Source: Gemmatimonadota bacterium
Lineage (GTDB): Bacteria; Gemmatimonadota; Gemmatimonadetes; Longimicrobiales; Gaopeijiaceae
DNA: 64,000 nt
Direction: 5' to 3'
Assembly: GCA_039589315.1 (NCBI GenBank)
Contig: JBDHHQ010000010.1
Location: 26,939 to 90,938 of the forward strand
Shown: positions 42,542 to 54,236 of the stretch, one piece after another
Position numbering within the stretch: position 1 is the first letter of the stretch
How the letters are laid out: each line of letters opens with the position of its first letter
Notes under the pieces: model-generated
Told to the model about the DNA's origin: nothing
Databases searched by the model: none
Seen by the model: the letters and a program-made list of their open reading frames with translations, nothing else
Position numbers and translations under genes: made by a program

Positions 42542-44146
42542 ATGCCGTACCGTCGAGTCCTCGCGCTCAGAACGATCCCTTCCATCATCCTCGTCTGGGC
42601 GTTGTGGGCCACTCCCTCGGGCGTGGTGGGTCAGACGTTCGCCACGGAAGACCACGTCCTTCACGGCATCTGGCAGGAAGGCATGGAGCGGTCCCGTCTG
42701 CATGAAATGGCCCAGGCCCTGATGGACTCCATCGGACCCAGGCTGACGGGCTCGCCGAGGCATGAGGCTGGAAACCGCTGGCTGCTGGAGAGATACGGTG
42801 CGTTCGGCATCGAAGCCCGGACCGAGAGCTACGGCACTTGGCTCCGTTGGCGCCGGGGACGCACGCACGTGGATCTGGTGGAGCCGCGAGTGCGGACGCT
42901 CGACGCAACGGCCCTGGCCTGGACGCCCGGTACGGACGCCGAGACGGTCCGGGGAGACGTCACGGTTCTCCCCCAGGTCCTGGGACCCGACGATTTCGAG
43001 GCCTGGCTCCCCTCCGTCGAGGGGAGGTTCGTGGCGATCTCCGCACCCGAGCCCACCTGTCGGCCGGACCCCTTCCTGCAAGCGTACGCCTCCCGGGCGT
43101 CGGCCGGAGAGGTGCAGTCGGCCCGGGCGCACGCACTACAGGATTGGACCGCCAACGTCCGCCGCATGGGCTTCGACGCCGACGAGTCCCGGCGGAGCCT
43201 CTGGCCGCTGGCACAACGGCTGGAGCAGGCGGGGGCCGTAGGTGTCCTCACGTCCGACTGGCCCCAGGGGTGGGGCGTCCACCGGGTCTTCAATGGCGGC
43301 ACCGAGGCCGTCCCCACACTGGGTCTCTCGTGCGAGGACTACGGCCTGGTTCACCGACTGGCGACGCGGGGCCAGGGCGCGGTGCTCGAGGTCATGTCCG
43401 AAAGCGAGTTCCTGGGCGAGGGACCGGTCTATAACGTCATCGCCGAGATTGCCGGCACGGAGCTGCCGGACGAATACGTCCTGCTCTCGGCCCACTTCGA
43501 CTCCTGGGACGGAGGCTCCGGGGCCACCGACAACGGGACCGGCACCGTGGTCATGCTGGAGGCGATGCGCATCCTGAGCACGGTGTACCCGAACCCGCGA
43601 CGGACCATTCTGGTGGGACACTGGAGCGGCGAGGAGCAGGGTCTCAACGGATCGCGTGGCTTCGCCCAGGATCACCCGGAGGTGGTGCAAGGTCTCCAGG
43701 CCATGTTCAACCAGGACAACGGCACCTTCCGGGTCACCGAAATGGGCCCCTCGGGACTCACGGCCGCGGCTGGCAGCCTGGCCCGCTGGCTGGCTCTGAT
43801 CCCGGAGGAGATCACCAGCCAGATCACCTTCGTCGCGCCCGGGGTCCCGGCAAGCGGAGGGAGCGATCACGCGGCCATGGTGTGCTACGGCGCGCCGGGG
43901 TTCCGACTGCAGTCGGACTACGGGGACTACCGCAACTACACCTGGCACACGAATCGGGATACCTTCGACAAGGTGGTGTTCCCCGAGGTCCGGAACAACG
44001 CCACCCTGACCGCCATGTTGGCGTATTTGGCCGCGGAAGATCCGGTCAAGACGCCGCGGGAACAGCGGACGGTGTTCGGAGACGATCTGGAGGGTTGGCC
44101 CGACTGTGAGCCTGCGGGGAGGAGCTATGACCAGCGGCGGCGCTAG
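42542..44146 (+). CDS. M28 family peptidase
   Basis: IGPRLTGS, SAHFDSWD, GATDNGTG, GEEQG, SDH, WHT. Confidence 0.93.
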   Translation: MPYRRVLALRTIPSIILVWALWATPSGVVGQTFATEDHVLHGIWQEGMERSRLHEMAQALMDSIGPRLTGSPRHEAGNRWLLERYGAFGIEARTESYGTWLRWRRGRTHVDLVEPRVRTLDATALAWTPGTDAETVRGDVTVLPQVLGPDDFEAWLPSVEGRFVAISAPEPTCRPDPFLQAYASRASAGEVQSARAHALQDWTANVRRMGFDADESRRSLWPLAQRLEQAGAVGVLTSDWPQGWGVHRVFNGGTEAVPTLGLSCEDYGLVHRLATRGQGAVLEVMSESEFLGEGPVYNVIAEIAGTELPDEYVLLSAHFDSWDGGSGATDNGTGTVVMLEAMRILSTVYPNPRRTILVGHWSGEEQGLNGSRGFAQDHPEVVQGLQAMFNQDNGTFRVTEMGPSGLTAAAGSLARWLALIPEEITSQITFVAPGVPASGGSDHAAMVCYGAPGFRLQSDYGDYRNYTWHTNRDTFDKVVFPEVRNNATLTAMLAYLAAEDPVKTPREQRTVFGDDLEGWPDCEPAGRSYDQRRR

Positions 44147-45038
44147 GGCGATCGCGGCGGGCCTGGTGGCGTGGGTCGCCGCCTGTGGCGAGGCGCCCGT
44201 GCCCAAGGTCCTGGTCGTCGGCATCGACGGTGTCCGACCGGACGTGTTGGCCGCGGTGCACACGCCCAACCTGGACGCGCTCGCGGCGGACGGGCTGTAC
44301 AGCGCCGAGGCCCAGACCGGCTCGCCTACCGTGTCGGGCCCCGGCTGGTCGAGCCTGCTGATCGGCGTGTGGCCCGACAAGCACGGCGTGACGAGCAACG
44401 ACTTCACCGCGAACGCCTACGACCGTCACCCCGACTTCCTGACCCGCCTCGAACAGACGGATTCGAGCTTCAGCACCCTGGCCGTCGTGGACTGGCGGCC
44501 CTTGGCGGACACCACCGACGGGGGCCCGTTGATCTCCCCCGCCGTCGATTCGTTGGTGCTGTTGGACGGCTACGAGGTCGGGTGGCTGGCGGCGGACTTC
44601 TTCCTCACGGACGTGGCAGGGGACCTCATCACGACTTCGGACGTGGACGCGGCGTTCGTGTATCTGGGAGCCCCCGACGAGGTCAGCCACGAAACCGGAG
44701 CGATCGGCGAGGACTACCAGCACGCGCTGGCCGCTTCCGACAACCTCGTGGGCAAGCTGGTGGAGGCCGTCCGGTCCCGTCCGACCTACGCCGATGAGGA
44801 CTGGCTCATCATCGTCAGCAGCGACCATGGGCGGCGGGATGACGGCGGCCACGGAGGCGAGTCTCCCGAGGAGAAAACGATCCCGTTCCTGCTGAGCGGA
44901 CCCTCCGTTCAGGGCCAGCTGCTGGAGGCGCCTCGCATCGTCGACGTCGCCGTCACCGCTCTGGCTCATATGGGCGTTACGCCGGAACCGGCCTGGGAGC
45001 TGGACGGACGTGCCATAGGCATCTCACCCGTCCGGTGA
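44127..45038 (+). CDS. Alkaline phosphatase superfamily / type I phosphodiesterase lipoprotein
   Basis: VAAC lipobox, GIDGVR, TVSGPGWS, D..SH, SDHG. Confidence 0.88.
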   Translation: MTSGGARAIAAGLVAWVAACGEAPVPKVLVVGIDGVRPDVLAAVHTPNLDALAADGLYSAEAQTGSPTVSGPGWSSLLIGVWPDKHGVTSNDFTANAYDRHPDFLTRLEQTDSSFSTLAVVDWRPLADTTDGGPLISPAVDSLVLLDGYEVGWLAADFFLTDVAGDLITTSDVDAAFVYLGAPDEVSHETGAIGEDYQHALAASDNLVGKLVEAVRSRPTYADEDWLIIVSSDHGRRDDGGHGGESPEEKTIPFLLSGPSVQGQLLEAPRIVDVAVTALAHMGVTPEPAWELDGRAIGISPVR

Positions 45039-45099
45039 CCAGGTGGCCGACGGGGTGGCGGCACCTCACCGCAATTCGTCCCCACCGGTAGGCGCCCCC

Positions 45100-45915
45100 A
45101 TGCCCAGCGGTCCGCCCCGCCCCGACAGTCCCGAGTTCTTCCGGGAGCGCTATGGCCGCCCGCGCCTGGAGGGAGCCCGGCAGGTGGACCGGTCGGTGCT
45201 GGGTCACGACGCCGGCCTCAACGGCTACACCACGGTGGACGAAGCCGATACCCTGGCCGAGCATCTCGAGCTGGGGCCGGATCGACATCTGCTCGATCTG
45301 GGCGCCGGCCGGGGATGGCCGGGCTCCTATCTGGCCCTGCGGAGCGGATGCCGCGTCGTGATGACCGACATTCCCCTTGAGGCCCTCCGGCAGGCTTTGA
45401 CGTACGCCGAAAGCCGCGAGGTGGCAGGGCATGCGTGGGCCATCGCCGCCGAGGGTAGCGCACTTCCCTTTCGATGCCGGCGCTTCGATGCCGTCACCCA
45501 CGCGGACGTCTTCTGCTGACTGCCCAACAAGCTCTCCGTGATGAGAGAATGCAGACGGATTCTGAAGCCCGGTGGACGTGTCGCCGGATACCTGATCCAT
45601 ACGCCCCCCGGCCTCGCCGATCGGGCATACGAGCGCGCGAGCGAGCTGGGGCCGGCGGAAGCCGTGACCCCCGAGCCCCTTACGGAGCTCGTCGCTGCCG
45701 CCGGTCTGAATCTCGTCGCCCTTCAGGACGTCACCAACGATTTCAGGCAGACATGCCGCGCCATCCTCGATGCCCGCCGTGATCACGAGACGGCCCTCCG
45801 CGCCGAGGAGGGCGACGAGGTGTTCGAGGACGGACAGGCGCAGAAGGACGCGGTGCTCGCCGGAATCGACGAAGGACTGCTTCTGCGCTCGCTGCTCGTA
45901 GCCGAACGGCGGTAG
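45100..45915 (+). CDS. Class I SAM-dependent methyltransferase with in-frame TGA (probable selenocysteine, C139-U140)
   Basis: Two same-frame ORFs join across TGA 45517-45519 into LLDLGAGRG...FDAVTHADVFC*LPNKLSVMRECRRILKPGG; hairpin directly downstream. Confidence 0.8.
45520..45554 (+). promoter_or_regulatory. Candidate bacterial SECIS element
   Basis: CTGC..CTCTC-CGTGAT-GAGAG..GCAG; apical loop begins 17 nt after TGA with G at loop position 2 followed by U. Confidence 0.65.
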
Positions 45916-45953
45916 CCCGCCCCTCTACACCGCCGCGTTGGGCGTCTCGCCCC

Positions 45954-47534
45954 TCAGCGTGCCATCAGGACCAGGTCGGCGGCCTTCTCGGCGATCATGA
46001 TCACGGGCCAGTGGGGGTGTCCCCGGATCGTGTGTGGCATCACGGACGCATCCACGACGCGAAGACCATCCACGCCCCGGACCTCCAGAGATGGGGTCAG
46101 TACCGCATCGGGTCCGTCGCCCATCCCGCACGTGCCCACCGGGTGGTAGATGGTCTCGGCCCGCTCCCGCACGAACGCGGCGATCTCCTCGTCACTGCGG
46201 ACCCCCTCGTCGGGCATGAGGGGTTTCCCCACGTAGCGCGCCAGCGGCTCGGTAGAGAAGATCCGGCGCACCAGCTTGATCGATTCCACCAGCACGCGCA
46301 GATCCTCACCCTCGCGGTCCGACAGGTAGTTCGGGTCGATCTTCGGGGCCGCCATGGGGTCGGGGGAGCCCAGGCGAATCGCTCCCCGGCTTCGGGGCTG
46401 GAGGAGAATCCCGCCTGCGGAGAGGTATTCCCCGGGGACTCGGGTCAAGCCGTGGTCCACGAAAGCCACCGGGGCCCAGATGAGCTCCAGGTCCGGCAGC
46501 TCCAACTCGGGGCGGGTGCGGACGAACCCGCACGCTTCGGCCACGTTGGAGGTGACCGGGCCTCGCTTGGACAGGAACCACCGGAGCAGGGCCGGCAGCC
46601 TCTCGGCCCGGGCCAAGCTGGGCGTCCCCACCGCCTCCATCACGACGCCGCAGACCAGGTGGTCCTGGAGGTTGGCGCCCACGGCCGGGCGATCGACGGC
46701 CACTTGGATCCCGTGTTCCTGAAGGGCCTGACCGGGGCCGATGCCCGAGAGCATGAGCAGTTGCGGCGAGAACACGGCACCGGCCGCCAGGATGACCTCG
46801 CGACGAGCCCGAACCCGACCCACGCCCTTCTTGCCCCGATACTCCACGCCGCTGGCCCGACCCTCGTGCAGGATGACCCTCGTGACCCGGGTGTCCTGCC
46901 GCACTTCCAGGTTCGGCCGGTGCACGGCGGGGCGCAGGTACGCGTCCACCACGCTGAACCGGCTTCCGCTTCGTTGGTTCACCTGGGTCTGCTCGACCCC
47001 ATCCGGATCCGGCCCGTTGAGGTCCGAGCACCGGGGGATGCCCAGGTTGGCGGCGGACTCCAGGAAGGCCTCGGTCGTGGGGGTGGGATCGCGTAGCTCC
47101 CCCACGGGCAGCGGTCCGCCCGAGCCTCGCCACTCCGACGGGCCCCGTGCCGAGTCCTCGGAGCGGCGGAAGTACGGCAGCACGTCGTCGAAGCCCCAGC
47201 CGGCGCACCCCGCCCGAACCCACTCGTCGTAGTCCCGCGGATGCCCCCGCACGACTATCATCGCGTTGATGGACGAGCAACCACCGAGCATGCGCCCGCC
47301 CGGCCAGTAGATCCGGCGTCCGTCCAGTCGTTCCTGGGGCTCGGTAGACAGATTCCAGTCCCGCCGGGTCTTGAACAGTCGGGAGAACGCCGCTGGCGCC
47401 CGCACCATGACGCTCCGGTCGTTCGTACCGGCCTCGAGGAGCAGCACCGACGCGGTCGGATCCTCGGACAGCCGCGCCGCGAGGACGGAGCCCGCCGTGC
47501 CGCCTCCAACGATGATGTAGTCGAACTCGGCCAT
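45954..47534 (-). CDS. GMC oxidoreductase (choline dehydrogenase-like)
   Basis: GGGTAG, GGCSSIN, GANLQDH, YHPVGTC, RVVDAS, IAEKAAD. Confidence 0.94.
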   Translation of the reverse strand: MAEFDYIIVGGGTAGSVLAARLSEDPTASVLLLEAGTNDRSVMVRAPAAFSRLFKTRRDWNLSTEPQERLDGRRIYWPGGRMLGGCSSINAMIVVRGHPRDYDEWVRAGCAGWGFDDVLPYFRRSEDSARGPSEWRGSGGPLPVGELRDPTPTTEAFLESAANLGIPRCSDLNGPDPDGVEQTQVNQRSGSRFSVVDAYLRPAVHRPNLEVRQDTRVTRVILHEGRASGVEYRGKKGVGRVRARREVILAAGAVFSPQLLMLSGIGPGQALQEHGIQVAVDRPAVGANLQDHLVCGVVMEAVGTPSLARAERLPALLRWFLSKRGPVTSNVAEACGFVRTRPELELPDLELIWAPVAFVDHGLTRVPGEYLSAGGILLQPRSRGAIRLGSPDPMAAPKIDPNYLSDREGEDLRVLVESIKLVRRIFSTEPLARYVGKPLMPDEGVRSDEEIAAFVRERAETIYHPVGTCGMGDGPDAVLTPSLEVRGVDGLRVVDASVMPHTIRGHPHWPVIMIAEKAADLVLMAR

Positions 47535-47867
47535 GCCCTGTCCGCTCGGTCGGGTGTGGGGTTCGGCGAGCACCCCCCACGCGTCACGCTCGGCCGAGGT
47601 CGTCCGCCGCTTCGGACTCCCAAGATTGGTCGGGACGCCGTTCACGCAAGCAGATGAGCCCGTCGCCAACGATCCGAAGACCCATCGGGAGCGCGACTCG
47701 GGGTGAGCCCGGTCTCGCACCGGACGAGCGGCAGGGCTCGGACGGCGCCCGGAAAGAGGGCCCACCGCCCCCTTGCCGGCACGCTCTTCTTGCCATCCTG
47801 ATCGGGCCGGCTGAACTTGAGATTCCCCCCTGTGCCCACCGCACCACCCCCGACTCCAGGAGTCTCC

Positions 47868-50800
47868 ATGTCTTCACTTCGGGTCTACGGCAGAAGGGAC
47901 GACCAGCTCGAGCACCGATCGGTAGGGACGGGCACCTTCCTGGACCACGTCGACGTCCAGGACGCCATCAGCCTCTCGGCCGACCGGAGCGGCGACGCCG
48001 AGACCATCGACATCCCCGATCTGCAGGACGATGACGTCCTGGAGATCTCCCTCGAGGACGGGCTGAAGATCTGGACCCGGTGGGATGACCTGCAGAGCGA
48101 CATGGCCGGTCAGATCGTTCGTGGAGAGGGCGACGAGCTGGTCCTACCGAGCTCCGTCCGACTGGGAGACCAGACGCGGGGCGCCGGCGATTGGGCGCTG
48201 ACCGCACTCCGGAGAGTCGGGTTCGACCTCCCAGGAGCCACGGGCGAGGCCATCGCCCAGGCCTTGGAGAGCCGCCTCGAGCAGGAGCCCGGGCTATACC
48301 GGTGGTCGCTGGCGGACGGCATGCAGGTTGTGGACGGCGCCAGCGTCGCCACCGATCGACCGTCACTGTTGTTCATTCATGGCACCATGTCTTCCACGGT
48401 GGGGAGCTTCGGCGGGCTCCTGGAAGAGGAAGTGTGGCAGCGCTTCACGCGGGAGTACGGAGACCAGATCTACGCGTTGGAGCACCGCACGTTGAGCCTG
48501 AACCCGATCCAGAACGCCCTCGAGCTGCTCGAGGTCCTGCCGGAGGCCGCCCAGCTCCATCTCGTGACCCACTCTCGCGGCGGGCTCGTCGGCGAGCTCC
48601 TATGCCGGGGGATGCGGATCGGCGGCGATCCCGTCGACGAGCTCGACGTCACCGTATTCCAGGAGCGGCACGGACCGGGCGCCGCGGATCTCGAACGCCT
48701 CGAGAGGCTCGGGGCCCTCTTGGCCGAGCGCAGGCCCGCCGTCGAGCGCTTCGTGCGCGTCGGATGCCCGGCTGCCGGCACCACGCTGGCTTCGGGCCGG
48801 CTGGACCGGTACCTGAGCGTGCTGCGCAACGTGATCGGTGCCATCCCGGCCTTGAAGGCGAGTCAGTTCTACGAGTTCGTCACCGCGTTCCTCCTTGCGG
48901 TGGTCAAGCAGCGGACAGACCCCGAGCGGATCCCGGGGCTCGAAGCCCAGATGCCGGAATCGCCCCTCGTGGCCATGGTGAACCGACCGGACGTCAGCCT
49001 GGAAGGCGACCTGTCGGTCATCGCGGGCGACATCGTGCCGTCGGGCGTCTTCGCGCGTCTGGGGGTTCTGGCGCTGGACGCCTTCTTCCTCGCCGATCAC
49101 GACCTGGTGGTCAACACAGCGGCCATGCTGGGCGGGGCACCTCGGCGGTCCGGCGGCCGCGCGATGCTCACGAAAGGCACGCAGGTCAACCACTTCCACT
49201 ACTTCAAGAACGACGACACGGTACGGGCGATCAGCTCCGCCCTGAAGGACGGGTCGGACGCTGCCCTCGCGGACGGGCCTTTCATGACGCTGGACCAGGC
49301 CCGAGGACGCCACCGCGAGCGGCGGTTCACGGGCCGCGGGAGCACGGTTCCCAGGCCCACGGTCTTCGTCGTTCCCGGTCTCATGGGTAGCCACCTGGAA
49401 GTGGCGGGCAACCGCGTCTGGCTGGACATCGCCGACCTGGCCCGGGGACGAATGGACCGCCTGCGCCACGATGCGCCCGGGGTTCAGCCCGTCGAACCCA
49501 TCGACCGGGTCTACGGCGAGCTGTCGGAGTATTTGAGCGACAGCCACGACGTCCGCCAGTTCCCGTACGACTGGCGGCGATCGGTGATGGAGTGGGGGGA
49601 CCGTCTCGGCGAGGAGGTGAAGCGCGCCCTGACGCGGTCCGATCTCCCCGTGCGCGTCATCGCTCACTCCATGGGCGGCCTGATCACACAGGCCATGATC
49701 CACGAGCACCCGGCCGTGTGGGAGGAAGTCACCCGCCGTGGGGGACACCGGGTGGTCCTGATGGGGACACCGATCAACGGCTCGTTCACGATCCCCCTGG
49801 TGCTCCTGGGGAGAGAGTCGACCCTCAAGAAGCTCGCCATGTTGGACCTCCGGAACTCACGGGAGGCGATTCTCGAGATCGTGGCTGGCTACCAGGGCCT
49901 GCTGGACCTGCTTCCAGGCATCGAGCATCAAGCCATGTTCGAGCGGGAGTTCTGGAATCGTCTCCATGAGCTCCACGGGGGTTGGACGCGCCCGGAGCGA
50001 GATCTTCTGGCTGCGGCCAAGCGCGCGCGCGCGGCCCTCGCTGAAACCTCGTTCGGAGCCGAGCCGGTCCGCTACGTGGCGGGCCAGGCTCCGGTGACCC
50101 CCAACGGCTACCGCCTGGACCCGGGCGCCCGTGGCGCCCGCCGAATCCAATTCCTGGGCACGGCAAGAGGAGACGGTCGTGTGCCGTGGGACTCGGGTCC
50201 GCCACCGGGTGCCGAGGTCTACTACCTGGAGGGGGTGTCCCACGGAGACCTGCCCGCCCACCGAGCGGCGTTCGGCGCCTATCTGGAGCTGCTCGAAGCA
50301 GGAGACACCCGGCTGTTGAGCCGGACGCCTCCCTCCACGCGCGGAGCCCCGGACGAGTTCGAGCTGCCGGATATCCCGGTGGATCTCTTCCCGGACGAGG
50401 AGGACCTGGAAACCTCGGTCGTCGGTGGCACCCGGTCCGTGAAGATCGAGGCCCGCGCGCCCGAGCTCCGTGTCAGGGTGGCCCACGGCAACCTGGCGTT
50501 CGCCAGCCACCCGGTGGTGGTGGGCCACTACCGGGACGATCTGATCGTGAGCGCCGAGAAGGCCCTCGACCACCACCTCGGCGGGCTGCTGAGACAGAGA
50601 CACGCCGCGTCCGTGTACCCCGGTGACCTGAGGACCGCGGCCGTCGTCTTCAACCCGGTCGAAGGGCGCCGGCCCAAGGGCGCCATCGTGGTGGGGCTGG
50701 GTGAGGTGGGACGCCTGAGCCCCGGGGCACTCGCGTCCACCATCGCACACGGGATGAAGGAATACGCGTCCCGCCGCATGGAGCTCGAGCATGAGCTGGC

Positions 50801-53258
50801 GGCCCAGGGCGACGGCCGGCTGAGGGTAAGCCTCCTCCTGATCGGCACCGGTGAGGGGGGGTTGGGCCTGAGAAACGCCCTGGCTTCGATCCTCGAGGGG
50901 ATCCGGGAAGCCAACGTCTCCCTGGCGAAGACCCAAGGGGCCGAGGCGGTCAGGGTTGACGAAGTCGAGTTCATCGAGCTCTACGAGGATCGGGCCGTCG
51001 AGGCGTTGGACGCTCTGCGTAGGATGGCGTGTGAAGCCCGGGCGGGCCTGTGGGTCGAGCCCGAGCTGAAGGCCCTGCGCGGTGGTCGACGCCGCATGTA
51101 TGAAGAAGGCGACGAGGCGTGGTGGCACCGCATCGAGGTGCTGGGGGGCATGGAGGCCGGCGAGGATCCCTTCACGCCTCTTCGGTTCAAGGCGCTCACG
51201 GATCGCGCACGAGTCCACCAGGAGCTGGTTCCGGCCCAGCGCGCGTTGATCGACAAGATGGTGGAGGAGTCCATCACCAGAACCTCCTGGGACCCCGAGT
51301 TGGCGCGGACCCTCTTCGAGCTGCTGTTGCCCAACTCGTTCAAGAACGCAGCCCGCGACCGACGAAGCGTGGAGCTGGTCCTGGACGAGGAGGCCGCCAG
51401 CTATCCGTGGGAGCTCCTGGTCAATCCACAGGGCGACGGAGAACCCGCCTCCATTCGGGCCGGCATGGTGCGAAGGCTCATCACGCCAGCCTCCCTTTCC
51501 CCCAACGAAACGTCGGCCAGCGACTTCGCCCTCGTCGTGGGCAACCCGCCCAGCGACATGCCGGATCTGCCCGGGGCTTCCGCCGAGGCCCGAGCGGTGG
51601 CCGACACGCTCGACGCCCGGGGCTTCAAGGTCACGGCCTCCATAGAAGAGAAGGGCACTCAGGTGCTCAAGGCCATGTTCGGGAAGGAGGGCTCCGGGGC
51701 CCGGGGATATCGGATCCTGCATCTAGCAGGACACGGCGTCTACCGTGGACTGGGCAGCCGGGATTCGGGGATGGTCCTGGGAACCGGAGAGCTCTTCACG
51801 CCCTCGGAGGTGGAGCGCATGAGGTTCATTCCCGAGCTGGTCTTCATCAACTGTTGCCACCTCGGGCGGGTAGAGGGCGGTCGGGAGCCCGGCACGAGAC
51901 ACCTCAACCGTCTCGCGGCCAACCTCGGCACACAGTTCATCCGCTGCGGCGTCAAGGCCGTCGTCACGGCTGGCTGGGCCGTGAACGACAGCGCCGCCGA
52001 GCTGTTTGCCACGACCTTCTACGAACAGATGCTCGACCAGCGCGAGACGTTTGGCGATGCGGTGCGGGCCGCCCGCGAGCGGGTCAAGGAGGATTTCGCG
52101 GCCAACAATACCTGGGCAGCATACCAATGCTACGGGGATCACTCGTTCGTGCTCCGCGCTGGGGCCGGCTCGAGGGCTCCGAGGAGCGCGTGCGACGCGG
52201 CCAGGGCGTTCTCCGCGCCGGCCCATGCGATCGTGGAGCTCGACAACATCGCAGGCCAGGCAGAAACCGCTTCGACTCACGGCCACGCGTGGCTGGAGGG
52301 GCAGCTGACCGAGGTGGTCTCCAGGATTCCCGATCGGTGGATGAAGAGCCGGGCCGATGTCCAGGCGGCTCTGGGCAAGGCATGGGGTCAGCTGGGTGAC
52401 TTCGACCGGGCACAAGACCACCTGGGCGCCGCCCTCGGTATGGAGGGCTCGCACTTCCCGGTCCGAAGCATCGAAGCGTACGCGAACGTCACGGTGCGCG
52501 CGGCCTTCAGACGGTGGAGCGTGGCACATCCGGCGGCCCCGGGGGGGAACACCAATGCTCGGTCCGACCGGAGCGAGACCTCCGATGGAAGGAGCACCGA
52601 TCCCGAGGCCGCAACGCTGCCCTGCAAAGAACGCATCCACGCGGCTCAGGACCTCATCGTGAACCTCATGGCCATCGGCGAGATCCGGACTGGCACGCCC
52701 CGCAGAGCGATGCCACGGGAGTTGCCCGGGGCGACGTCGGAGAGGCTTTCCCTCCTCGGCAGCGCCCACAAGCGGCGCGCAGCGATGGGAGGCCCTGGAA
52801 GCGGGGACGAGCTCCTGCGATGCCGCGACCGGTACGCCGACGCGGTCGCGCTCGCCGAGGGCGACCGTCTCTCTTACCCGCTCCTCAATTGGCTCTATGT
52901 GGTGGCATTGCGGAAGGCCCGGGGAGCAGCGGAACGCCCCGCGCCCTTCCTGGACCGCCTCGAGCAAGCCACCACCGAGGCCGCCCGGAAGGACGGGGAG
53001 GACCCGAACTTCTTCAACCATGTGCTGACCGCCGAGGTCAAGTTGATCGCGGGCCTCTGGGAAGGAGCGTTCGACCCTGACGAGATCATGAGCATCTACA
53101 GCTCGGCGTGGATCCGTGGCGGGTCCTACCGATCGTATCGCTCCATCGATGAGCACTTGGATTGCATGGTGCGTTTGGTCCGGCGCCGGCGGTCCCTCGC
53201 AGAAGCTCTGCACGATCTCCGAACGGGATTCAGACGCCTGGTATCGGAGGATGTCTAG
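47868..53258 (+). CDS. Large multidomain protein: two alpha/beta-hydrolase (lipase-like) domains, CHAT protease, helical TPR-like C-terminus
   Basis: FIHG/THSRGG; PGLMGS/YDWR/AHSMGG/GDGRVP; YPWELL, HLAGHG, FINCCH, WAV.D, W..Y.CYGD. Confidence 0.9.
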   Translation: MSSLRVYGRRDDQLEHRSVGTGTFLDHVDVQDAISLSADRSGDAETIDIPDLQDDDVLEISLEDGLKIWTRWDDLQSDMAGQIVRGEGDELVLPSSVRLGDQTRGAGDWALTALRRVGFDLPGATGEAIAQALESRLEQEPGLYRWSLADGMQVVDGASVATDRPSLLFIHGTMSSTVGSFGGLLEEEVWQRFTREYGDQIYALEHRTLSLNPIQNALELLEVLPEAAQLHLVTHSRGGLVGELLCRGMRIGGDPVDELDVTVFQERHGPGAADLERLERLGALLAERRPAVERFVRVGCPAAGTTLASGRLDRYLSVLRNVIGAIPALKASQFYEFVTAFLLAVVKQRTDPERIPGLEAQMPESPLVAMVNRPDVSLEGDLSVIAGDIVPSGVFARLGVLALDAFFLADHDLVVNTAAMLGGAPRRSGGRAMLTKGTQVNHFHYFKNDDTVRAISSALKDGSDAALADGPFMTLDQARGRHRERRFTGRGSTVPRPTVFVVPGLMGSHLEVAGNRVWLDIADLARGRMDRLRHDAPGVQPVEPIDRVYGELSEYLSDSHDVRQFPYDWRRSVMEWGDRLGEEVKRALTRSDLPVRVIAHSMGGLITQAMIHEHPAVWEEVTRRGGHRVVLMGTPINGSFTIPLVLLGRESTLKKLAMLDLRNSREAILEIVAGYQGLLDLLPGIEHQAMFEREFWNRLHELHGGWTRPERDLLAAAKRARAALAETSFGAEPVRYVAGQAPVTPNGYRLDPGARGARRIQFLGTARGDGRVPWDSGPPPGAEVYYLEGVSHGDLPAHRAAFGAYLELLEAGDTRLLSRTPPSTRGAPDEFELPDIPVDLFPDEEDLETSVVGGTRSVKIEARAPELRVRVAHGNLAFASHPVVVGHYRDDLIVSAEKALDHHLGGLLRQRHAASVYPGDLRTAAVVFNPVEGRRPKGAIVVGLGEVGRLSPGALASTIAHGMKEYASRRMELEHELAAQGDGRLRVSLLLIGTGEGGLGLRNALASILEGIREANVSLAKTQGAEAVRVDEVEFIELYEDRAVEALDALRRMACEARAGLWVEPELKALRGGRRRMYEEGDEAWWHRIEVLGGMEAGEDPFTPLRFKALTDRARVHQELVPAQRALIDKMVEESITRTSWDPELARTLFELLLPNSFKNAARDRRSVELVLDEEAASYPWELLVNPQGDGEPASIRAGMVRRLITPASLSPNETSASDFALVVGNPPSDMPDLPGASAEARAVADTLDARGFKVTASIEEKGTQVLKAMFGKEGSGARGYRILHLAGHGVYRGLGSRDSGMVLGTGELFTPSEVERMRFIPELVFINCCHLGRVEGGREPGTRHLNRLAANLGTQFIRCGVKAVVTAGWAVNDSAAELFATTFYEQMLDQRETFGDAVRAARERVKEDFAANNTWAAYQCYGDHSFVLRAGAGSRAPRSACDAARAFSAPAHAIVELDNIAGQAETASTHGHAWLEGQLTEVVSRIPDRWMKSRADVQAALGKAWGQLGDFDRAQDHLGAALGMEGSHFPVRSIEAYANVTVRAAFRRWSVAHPAAPGGNTNARSDRSETSDGRSTDPEAATLPCKERIHAAQDLIVNLMAIGEIRTGTPRRAMPRELPGATSERLSLLGSAHKRRAAMGGPGSGDELLRCRDRYADAVALAEGDRLSYPLLNWLYVVALRKARGAAERPAPFLDRLEQATTEAARKDGEDPNFFNHVLTAEVKLIAGLWEGAFDPDEIMSIYSSAWIRGGSYRSYRSIDEHLDCMVRLVRRRRSLAEALHDLRTGFRRLVSEDV

Positions 53259-53306: not shown

Positions 53307-54236
53307 ATGCCTGCGCCACGTGACCACCACGACCTCGCCACCCGATTCGCTCCCCGGCTGCACCTGCACCCCAAGGAAGAGTTCTTGCCCATGGACCCGG
53401 AGGCGTTCATCGAGAAGTCCCGCCTGGTTCTGCTGCAGGACCGACCTGGAGGCTTCGAGCCTGTAGCGGTGTTCGACCTCGAGCAACGACAGTGGGATAC
53501 GGACCCACCGGACTGGAAGCACTTCGGCCTCTCCACGGGCCTCGTGGGCGGTTGGGAGCAGCTACAGGTCGTCCCGGAAGACGCAGGGTGGAGCCGGCGC
53601 CCCCACGACTCCAGCCTGGCCCCCGACGGCCACCTCTTCGCTCTCGAGCATCAGACGAAGGAGCCGTCCGACGCCTTCGACCCCGCGGACCCTCCGCCCT
53701 GCTTCTACTTCGTCGAAGAGCGGCAGAACGCCACTTGGATCAGCTATTGGTTCTTCTACGGATTCAGCCGATTCCTCGGCAAGTTCGCTCATCAGGGTGA
53801 CTGGGAGCATCTGCGGATCCGCATCCAGGATGACACGATGGACGAAGCCTTGTTCGCGGTGCACGAGGACGTCTACCGGGTGCGGCGGCACCTGTTGAGC
53901 TTCAATGGCGACGCGCTGAACGCCTACTCGGCCAGAAGCCGCCACGCCACGTGGTGGAAGACCGGGAGCTTCGTGCCGTTACCGCTCTTCAAGGACACCA
54001 CCCCCGCGGAGGAGGTGTTGAGCCGGGAGGAGCGTGCGCTCCTGAGTGACGAAACCTCCGAGGAGGGCGCGGTATGGCAGACGCGGCTGAACCTGCAGCC
54101 GTTGGAGGAGCAGCCCTGGCGGCTCTTCGCCGGAGCTTGGGGGAAGGCTGGTGGGGCCGCCCATGGGACCGGCCCTCTGGGGCCCTGGCAGAAGCGCTTT
54201 CTGGCCCCGGATCGGAAGATCATCGAGGAGGACTGA
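53307..54236 (+). CDS. Vps62/NPP1-like protein
   Basis: FAPRLHLHPKE.FLP, YWFFY, HQGDWEH, F.GAWG, GP.GP. Confidence 0.75.
   Translation: MPAPRDHHDLATRFAPRLHLHPKEEFLPMDPEAFIEKSRLVLLQDRPGGFEPVAVFDLEQRQWDTDPPDWKHFGLSTGLVGGWEQLQVVPEDAGWSRRPHDSSLAPDGHLFALEHQTKEPSDAFDPADPPPCFYFVEERQNATWISYWFFYGFSRFLGKFAHQGDWEHLRIRIQDDTMDEALFAVHEDVYRVRRHLLSFNGDALNAYSARSRHATWWKTGSFVPLPLFKDTTPAEEVLSREERALLSDETSEEGAVWQTRLNLQPLEEQPWRLFAGAWGKAGGAAHGTGPLGPWQKRFLAPDRKIIEED

Follow-up and report, generated by a model that had tools for sequence, protein, structure and literature searches.

An apparently uncatalogued family of class I methyltransferases with a predicted cysteine-selenocysteine pair in the methyl-transfer site

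Based on analyses of the reading frame, of its homologs and of a structural model, we propose that a class I SAM-dependent methyltransferase gene in the window, i.e. the whole 64,000-nucleotide stretch of Gemmatimonadota DNA that was analysed, is a real selenoprotein gene of a widespread and apparently uncatalogued family, in which an internal UGA almost certainly specifies selenocysteine (Sec). The Sec directly follows a cysteine, and the Cys139-Sec140 pair is predicted to lie where related enzymes keep a catalytic histidine, in the methyl-transfer channel. We give an even chance to the combined proposal that this is an unpublished selenoenzyme family in which the catalytic His of PMT/RebM-type enzymes was exchanged for Cys-Cys and then Cys-Sec, that it provides a second route of metalloid or chalcogen methylation, independent of ArsM, and that Sec-Sec sites arose within it at least twice, served by a single SECIS. 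Gene callers split these genes, and a common environmental selenoprotein family is thereby hidden as fragments.

Read with the TGA as U, the gene forms one uninterrupted frame from ATG to TAG (Table 1), with the peptide FDAVTHADVFC-U-LPNKLSVMRECRRILKPGG around the site, whereas the plain list of open reading frames has two separate pieces, 45043-45519 (158 aa) and 45538-45915 (125 aa). Three claims of a preliminary description of this DNA, made from the letters alone, hold up here: the two pieces share a frame and are separated only by the TGA; together they encode an intact class I methyltransferase, as the Pfam Methyltransf_11 match (PF08241, 57.7 bits versus a cut-off of 21.2) covers residues 65-161 and spans the TGA, in agreement with the model fold; and both halves are undecayed. 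The ortholog from the same genus shares the start Met and has 73% identity over 270 residues, with 91/125 and 89/125 identical residues in the two halves, each of which has 66 third-position changes and only 20-25 at positions 1 and 2. Equal purifying selection is thus acting on both halves. The host genome holds no paralog beyond one weak, unrelated match.

Table 1. Coordinates of the gene and its elements within the window.
Feature	Position	Strand	Remarks
Class I SAM-dependent methyltransferase gene, 271 aa	45100..45915	+	ATG at 45100 to TAG at 45915; one in-frame TGA read through
SAM-binding motif I, LDLGAGRGWP, residues 65-74	45292..45321	+	Conservation in 76 family sequences
Putative active-site motif H-x-D-x-x-C-U (H134, D136, C139, U140)	45499..45519	+	Conservation; PfPMT register
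Cys139 codon, TGC	45514..45516	+	Directly before the TGA
In-frame TGA, predicted selenocysteine 140	45517..45519	+	TGA kept in relatives; Cys in protein homologs; gene calls stop here
Outer (lower) stem, CTGC/GCAG	45520..45554	+	Folds in the window gene; not conserved
SECIS-like hairpin	45532..45547	+	5-bp stem CTCTC (45532-45536)/GAGAG (45543-45547); 6-nt loop CGTGAT

Among 76 family sequences the SAM-binding residues are intact: D66, G68, G70, G72 and D90 are conserved at 99-100%, corresponding to motif I (GxGxG) and the acidic residue ending strand 2, with G68, G70, G72 and also W73 at 100%. The latter is family-specific (Gly in 92% of the outgroup), as are E30, P185 and H134, which is conserved at 100% and replaced by Ser or Cys in the outgroup. 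Y18 and D136 (both 99%) are shared with the His-containing outgroup, D136 being invariant there. The Cys139 column is Cys or Sec in 76/76 sequences.

The TGA is kept at the same place in more than 100 relatives. In a search of 60 genomes, the five closest relatives, at 73-35% identity, all have Cys-TGA in the column, and weaker matches have His or other residues. Because dozens of genomes, with protein identities of 35-73%, carry the same TGA, sequencing error is no explanation. Among sequencing runs no RNA source is listed, and the single DNA run holding a small share contains no piece across the gene, which speaks for neither side. A profile built from 27 sequences matched 30 of 401 genomes of the host's phylum and 481 metagenome relatives, of which the best 80 were used; the loci scoring at least 180 bits, 93 after three duplicates had been dropped, are treated here as the family. 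All 93 carry TGA at codon 139 or 140 (86 Cys-TGA, 4 TGA-TGA and 3 TGA-TGC), and the next-scoring tier, from 161 down to 104 bits, has His in the column and lacks the hairpin. His occupies the column in 26/26 outgroup sequences. In the host's order (401-genome sample) the TGA is internal in 34/34 matches, and 22 of 23 new loci checked have Cys-TGA at the column, one falling outside the search pattern. A second phylum, that of a genome labelled Acidobacteria, matches in 5/401 genomes, with three Cys-TGA loci, one TGA-TGA and one Cys-Cys.

Protein databases contain the complementary forms. Among the 120 matches listed, 23 are full-length Cys-Cys and 2 Cys-Trp proteins, 32 end exactly at Cys139 and 4 end one residue earlier; of the 150 top-ranked cluster representatives, 132 extend to the site, and the resulting 134 aligned rows comprise 97 Cys-Cys, 2 Cys-Trp, 27 that stop at Cys139 and 8 other. 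The Cys-Cys form also exists as a genomic locus, in G756, with TGT-TGT/TGC-type codons, and the Cys-Cys proteins with a named source belong to Dehalococcoidia, Frankiaceae, Rhodobacteraceae and Gammaproteobacteria. Ranking on the window protein biases DNA searches towards Sec forms, protein searches are biased towards Cys forms, and the true Sec/Cys proportions follow from neither. No relative was found in viral contigs, nor any relative of a Cys-Cys homolog in plasmids; in the orders of G549 and G756 the centre genome alone matched (1/127 and 1/201), and a single-protein scan of genome contigs gave just one partial locus. Close relatives thus keep TGA or Cys at the column and His is confined to the outgroup. 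The earlier assignment as a CU-motif selenoenzyme stands for Sec, through the conserved TGA, the Cys homologs and the host machinery, and is too narrow for the motif, as the family comprises CU, UU, UC and CC forms.

The available text of PMC1088965 describes the bacterial SECIS as having, shortly after the UGA, a small apical loop that contains a G, and a stem-loop with a loop G directly 3' of the UGA agrees with that description. The loop of the hairpin begins 18 nt past the UGA and has an invariant G-T at positions 2-3 (columns G25 and T26). Across 66 non-redundant homologs the CTCTC/GAGAG stem is 97.9% paired, compared to 38-75% for slid registers, and the motif occurs once in the host genome. 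Codon usage in 66 loci, each <90% identical, points in the same direction: synonymous choice is almost frozen at codons +5 to +9 (Leu as CTC in 65/65, Ser as TCC in 62/66, Val as GTG in 65/66), and the hairpin Arg codon is AGA in 59/65, against 92 of 1871 Arg codons (5%) elsewhere in the same genes. The frozen codons coincide with the bases of the stem and the loop G-T, which argues for selection on the RNA. The Cys-Cys gene of G756 has neither the hairpin motif nor the synonymous freeze, though this genome encodes selA and selB. Compensatory changes in the stem were absent among the 66 sequences, and RNAalifold chose another helix, a weak one of 3 bp, so that the exact pairing rests on conservation. 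Folding energy was no better than chance (z -1.12, with 27/200 shuffles as good; further values of -0.66 and 0.05 likewise not significant), and Rfam gave no match at E<=1 in window positions 44000-47000. Of the two-tier stem-loop described initially, the fold is as described and the upper stem is conserved, whereas the lower CTGC/GCAG stem was rejected as a conserved element, being 48.5% paired across the 66 homologs.

The host genome (6.67 Mb, 67.5% GC, 95% complete) encodes the machinery for Sec insertion that the preliminary description had proposed to look for: selA (531 bits), selB (335 bits) and selD (370 bits), all above family cut-offs, and a tRNA-Sec on contig C139. Both tRNA-Trp(CCA) and tRNA-Sec(TCA) are present, and TGA serves as an ordinary stop elsewhere, ending both genes that flank the methyltransferase. 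Related TGA carriers have selA in 11/12 and 25/25 cases, and selB was found in 4/4 carriers of the second phylum. As selA is present in 32/38 non-carriers of the host's family too, co-occurrence shows compatibility and not enrichment, discriminates little, and was set aside as a proof of Sec. The host selD (G000:C5:69192-70112, L004) is itself a selenoprotein gene, with one in-frame TGA in G-U-A-C-K, followed by a strong hairpin that differs in sequence from that of the methyltransferase.

The AlphaFold model (pLDDT 91.5) is closest to the solved fold of AtPMT2 (Z 27.2, rmsd 2.8, 246 aligned), followed by sarcosine/dimethylglycine methyltransferase (Z 27.0), Plasmodium PMT (Z 26.6) and RebM (Z 26.0, rmsd 2.5, 229 aligned), compared to Z 17.8 for ArsM (rmsd 2.8, 181 aligned). 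Foldseek matches agree with this ranking, and SpnF, a cyclase on the same fold, is among the structural matches. In the alignments U140 falls on His360 of AtPMT2, and C139-U140 on His140-His141 of RebM, which we take to be its catalytic pair. A profile starting at residue 126 matches PfPMT residue 119 at its position 2, which places D136 on Asp128 and U140 on His132, assuming no gap over the next 13 positions; the PfPMT H132A entry scores below wild type (22.6 versus 26.2 bits). Tyr19 and His132 form the catalytic dyad of PfPMT according to the accessible part of PMC6705855. By this register Sec140 maps to the catalytic His132 of Plasmodium PMT, and not to any ArsM cysteine. The replacement of His by Sec in a methyl-transfer site is a placement absent from the lists for selenoprotein methyltransferases.

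Known selenoprotein methyltransferases differ from the window protein, and in the HMM comparison suggested earlier none of their models reached its cut-off: scores were 21.5 against 263 bits for ArsM (NF008823), 20.7/380 for MduS (NF045649), 34.9/460 for MTase/UXPK-star (NF047649), and 27.6/575 and 36.7/510 for the ArsM fusions (NF041536 and NF041537). No model of NCBIfam release 20 reaches its cut-off with this protein, the best match being NF045667 (DVU_1556 family methyltransferase; 59.3 bits versus 155). Sec-containing ArsM (NF008823, UxxG) and its fusions likewise combine a class I SAM fold with Sec insertion through UGA and SECIS, and possibly similar chemistry. However, the UxxG of ArsM lies ~50 residues later, whereas the Sec of the window protein comes right after strand 4 as part of a vicinal pair, and in an alignment to the ArsM-named homolog P0114 the cysteine column of the ArsM SN(C/G)V motif corresponds to D136. 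CmArsM has conserved cysteines 72, 174 and 224 (PMC5552862); the window protein has no equivalents of these, no UxxG and no lid cysteine. MduS is also a selenoprotein with a Methyltransf_25-type domain, but with two Sec and a CxxU motif as given in Table 1 of PMC13188914, in contrast to the single vicinal CU found here; likewise, MTase/UXPK-star, MduS and the ArsM fusions have two or three Sec in CxxU or UxxG motifs. The group of PMT, RebM, AtmM, MitM and sarcosine/dimethylglycine methyltransferase provides the closest folds, including the lid and C-terminal helices, and the Asp128 equivalent is kept. Unlike in this group, for which identity is 14-22% and no selenoprotein is listed, Sec or Cys occupies the His column, preceded by Cys or Sec. 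Vicinal Cys-Sec motifs are shared by HgcA, SaoL, SaoC, MbdU and KCU-star (PMC13188914, Table 1), selenoproteins of organometallic biochemistry whose folds are unrelated and none of which is a class I SAM methyltransferase; several CU-motif selenoproteins are linked to the handling of heavy metals or metalloids in the available text of that source.

The 2026 inventory in Table 1 of PMC13188914 comprises 119 prokaryotic selenoprotein families, with methyltransferase rows for ArsM, two ArsM fusions, MTase/UXPK-star, MduS and a DNA-repair methyltransferase; its 119 rows contain no vicinal CU in a class I methyltransferase fold and no UU motif. The word methyltransferase is absent from the main texts of deep-Sep (PMC12013277) and BSepDB (PMC13326102), as far as these are accessible, and the available portions of SelCysML (PMC13745706) and a 2022 review (PMC9312934) contribute nothing further. 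As far as the NCBIfam models, the 2026 inventory and these texts go, the family is apparently unpublished.

When the two site columns are masked, the tree has Cys-Cys forms at its base and a single subclade of Sec forms, in which Cys-Cys reversions are nested. An initial tree that lacked the wider Cys-Cys sample had pointed to Sec as the ancestral state; in the larger one (119 of the 176 sequences, after reduction at 75% identity; weak support for deep branches) Cys-Cys is basal. Seven metagenome sequences with Sec139 (49-66% mutual identity) cluster with a Dehalococcoidia Cys-Cys protein, and the TGA-TGA gene of G549, a genome that encodes selA and selB, is placed among the relatives of the window protein, apart from the seven. 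Joining all Sec139 forms in one clade was rejected (p-AU 4e-6, 39 rows), and Sec at position 139 thus appears, judging from the sequences, to have arisen at least twice, giving adjacent Sec-Sec. All eight Sec139 members share the same single hairpin. Five are TGA-TGA, predicted Sec-Sec, members: L057, L077, L084 and L085 from metagenomes, and G549:C12:32142-32930 (L168). The first described case of consecutive Sec codons is algal PDI_e (GUGUU), according to the available text of PMC7539508; like these five members it has two consecutive Sec codons, but it is a eukaryotic thioredoxin-fold protein, whereas UU here would belong to a bacterial methyltransferase with one in-frame hairpin. The UU variants offer a test of whether two Sec insertions in a row can be driven by a single bacterial SECIS, and with the natural CC/CU/UC/UU series on one scaffold the advantage of Sec over Cys in a non-redox enzyme can be tested at each position. 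An extra N-terminal lid cysteine is found in 20/23 basal and 15/21 nested Cys-Cys sequences, compared to 3/8 Sec139, 3/47 CU and 0/15 His forms (5 sequences skipped; the counts share ancestry and are not phylogenetically independent), a pattern as if the sulfur forms might need a further thiol.

Several variants were observed in addition. Nine database proteins stop one residue short of Cys139 and may be further TGA-TGA cases. The TGA-TGC (UC) loci L090, L098 and L104 have the hairpin at the CU spacing, hence 3 nt further from the UGA. UU or UC genes are followed by cupin genes in 4 loci and preceded by purE in 2. Some members are decayed with the TGA and hairpin intact: L010 (G004:C14) by an insertion-sequence-like interruption, L009 (G008:C146) by a frameshift, and L076, L078 and L095 by extra TAA or TAG stops. 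The Cys-Trp database proteins P0002, P0014 and P0125 still contain KLSVLR, the peptide encoded by the SECIS; P0014 and the TGA locus L065 share 97.7% identity, with the TGA probably read as Trp by the gene caller. P0169 (Candidatus Omnitrophota) and P0251 are distant relatives of the His/Tyr type with tandem methyltransferase domains.

The genes next to the window methyltransferase (peptidase M28, phosphodiesterase-like, GMC oxidoreductase) are uninformative on metals. Across the family, an ArsM-like gene lies within the 562 kb of flanking sequence in 11/93 loci, in seven arrangements, compared to ~0.13 expected, a rough estimate based on how dense ArsM genes are in 34 genomes of other taxa; 82/93 loci have no ArsM-like neighbour, 26 of which have less than 2 kb of flank. 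Of these 11 neighbours, 10 carry their own TGA at UxxG, the five that were scored reach 189-227 bits, below the ArsM cut-off, and all 11 loci lie outside the clade of the window. Other recurrent neighbours are MFS transporters (7), VOC proteins (6), rhodanese (5, one clade) and ArsR-rhodanese (3), as well as ArsR, MerR, HMA, sulfurtransferase, DsrE and DinB. Three ArsM-family genes are encoded elsewhere in the host genome, and no ArsM match was found in 5/12 TGA carriers. In genera g25 and g65 of the host's family, with small genomes of 1.7-2.7 Mb, the Sec gene is present in 5/5 and 7/7 genomes, and none of the four tested has an ArsM match. As a separate observation, ArsM-like neighbour genes (L041, L047, L049, L058, L073, L082, L083, L086, L087 and L103) and the host gene G000:C53:46597-47160 (L151) represent a type of short ArsM-like selenoprotein with W-x-(G/S)-U-(I/V)-x-G, and SNGV replacing SNCV, that scores below the NF008823 cut-off and would be truncated by gene callers too.

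We propose the following mechanism, tentatively, since as a whole, including the class of substrate, it has somewhat less than an even chance of being right, although it is the likeliest of the readings considered. SelB would, almost beyond doubt in view of established biology, bind the hairpin and deliver Sec-tRNA. Cys139 and Sec140 may then act as a bidentate soft ligand, not as a general base, so that a thiophilic metalloid (As(III), Sb(III) or Se/Te species) would be bound through S and Se beside SAM, methylated by SAM and released, in conjunction with which the vicinal pair probably cycles through a selenenyl sulfide and is re-reduced. The overall process would amount to ArsM-like chemistry re-invented on a PMT/RebM-type scaffold. 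That either or both positions accept S or Se (CU, UC, UU, CC) suggests joint, bidentate use of the pair, and the lid cysteines of the Cys-Cys forms, the ArsM-like neighbours in 11/93 loci and the recurrent ArsR, MerR, HMA and MFS genes make the metalloid reading plausible. The substrate guess of the preliminary description, a thiophilic metalloid or a thiol, is plausible with indirect support. Against it, the window neighbours are uninformative, the ArsM-adjacent loci belong to other clades, and the modelled fold is closer to N- and O-methyltransferases than to ArsM and lacks the ArsM cysteines; in addition, plain arsenite methylation would be redundant in a host with three ArsM-family genes. 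Should the substrate be a metalloid or chalcogen, the family would represent a route by which As, Se or S is methylated in the environment and which has gone unrecognised.

The rhodanese, sulfurtransferase, DsrE and flavin disulfide reductase neighbours suit sulfur or selenium substrates equally well. A Sec enzyme with sulfane sulfur, sulfide or selenide as acceptor is a possible but doubtful alternative, and so is its detailed form, in which a rhodanese or DsrE protein would load a persulfide or perselenide onto Cys-Sec, to be methylated and to leave as methanethiol or methaneselenol. A tandem rhodanese lies directly upstream in five related loci, with a Pyr_redox_2 flavoprotein downstream in 4/5, although these loci form one tight clade; a sulfurtransferase is found upstream in L029, in G756 DsrE directly precedes the Cys-Cys gene, L183 has a class V aminotransferase downstream, and ArsR-rhodanese fusions are present in 3 loci. 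However, a persulfide relay needs one thiol, and leaves two invariant chalcogens and the lid cysteines of the Cys-Cys forms unexplained.

Methylation of an organic metabolite at N or O, with the selenolate as a base or transient methyl carrier (Se-methyl) or with C-U as a redox switch, is unlikely, even though the modelled fold most resembles those of PMT, sarcosine/dimethylglycine methyltransferase and RebM, Y18 (99%) and D136 are shared with the His outgroup, and the gene persists in genomes of 1.7-2.7 Mb beside metabolic genes, e.g. for a CoA-transferase. On chemical grounds, a selenolate would be a poor general base and be trapped by methylation, and neither the ArsM-like neighbours nor the lid cysteines find an explanation. 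In homocysteine methyltransferases, vicinal cysteines in a Zn site activate a thiol, and H134, D136, C139 and U140 could similarly form a Zn site for S-methylation of an organic thiol. We regard this as unlikely too: the H-x-D-x-x-C-C spacing offers four potential ligands, H134 (100%, family-specific) and D136 (99%) are conserved and VOC and DinB neighbours recur, but D136 is invariant in the His outgroup as well, and a gain from Sec, or from Sec-Sec, is less expected at a stable Zn site. It is very improbable that the TGA is a true stop of a pseudogene or split gene, a sequencing error or a Trp codon, for which two Cys-Trp database proteins and a few homologs decayed by other lesions (L009, L010, L076, L078 and L095) might be cited, since the same TGA occurs at 35-73% identity with both halves equally constrained, the homologous column is Cys and not Trp, neighbouring genes end in TGA, the host has separate tRNAs for Trp and Sec, and the 97.7% identity of one Cys-Trp protein to a TGA locus fits a gene-caller reading or a single variant.

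Two further features of the host were observed. Downstream in the window, positions 47817-53258 (+) encode an 1813-aa protein that combines DUF7379, lipase-like, CHAT/caspase and TPR-S domains; a Vps62-like gene (53307-54236) comes next, and the arrangement is syntenic in the same-genus genome. Elsewhere in the genome, G000:C68:16206-18887 holds 18 tRNA genes within 2.7 kb on one strand, several of which duplicate tRNAs encoded at other sites.
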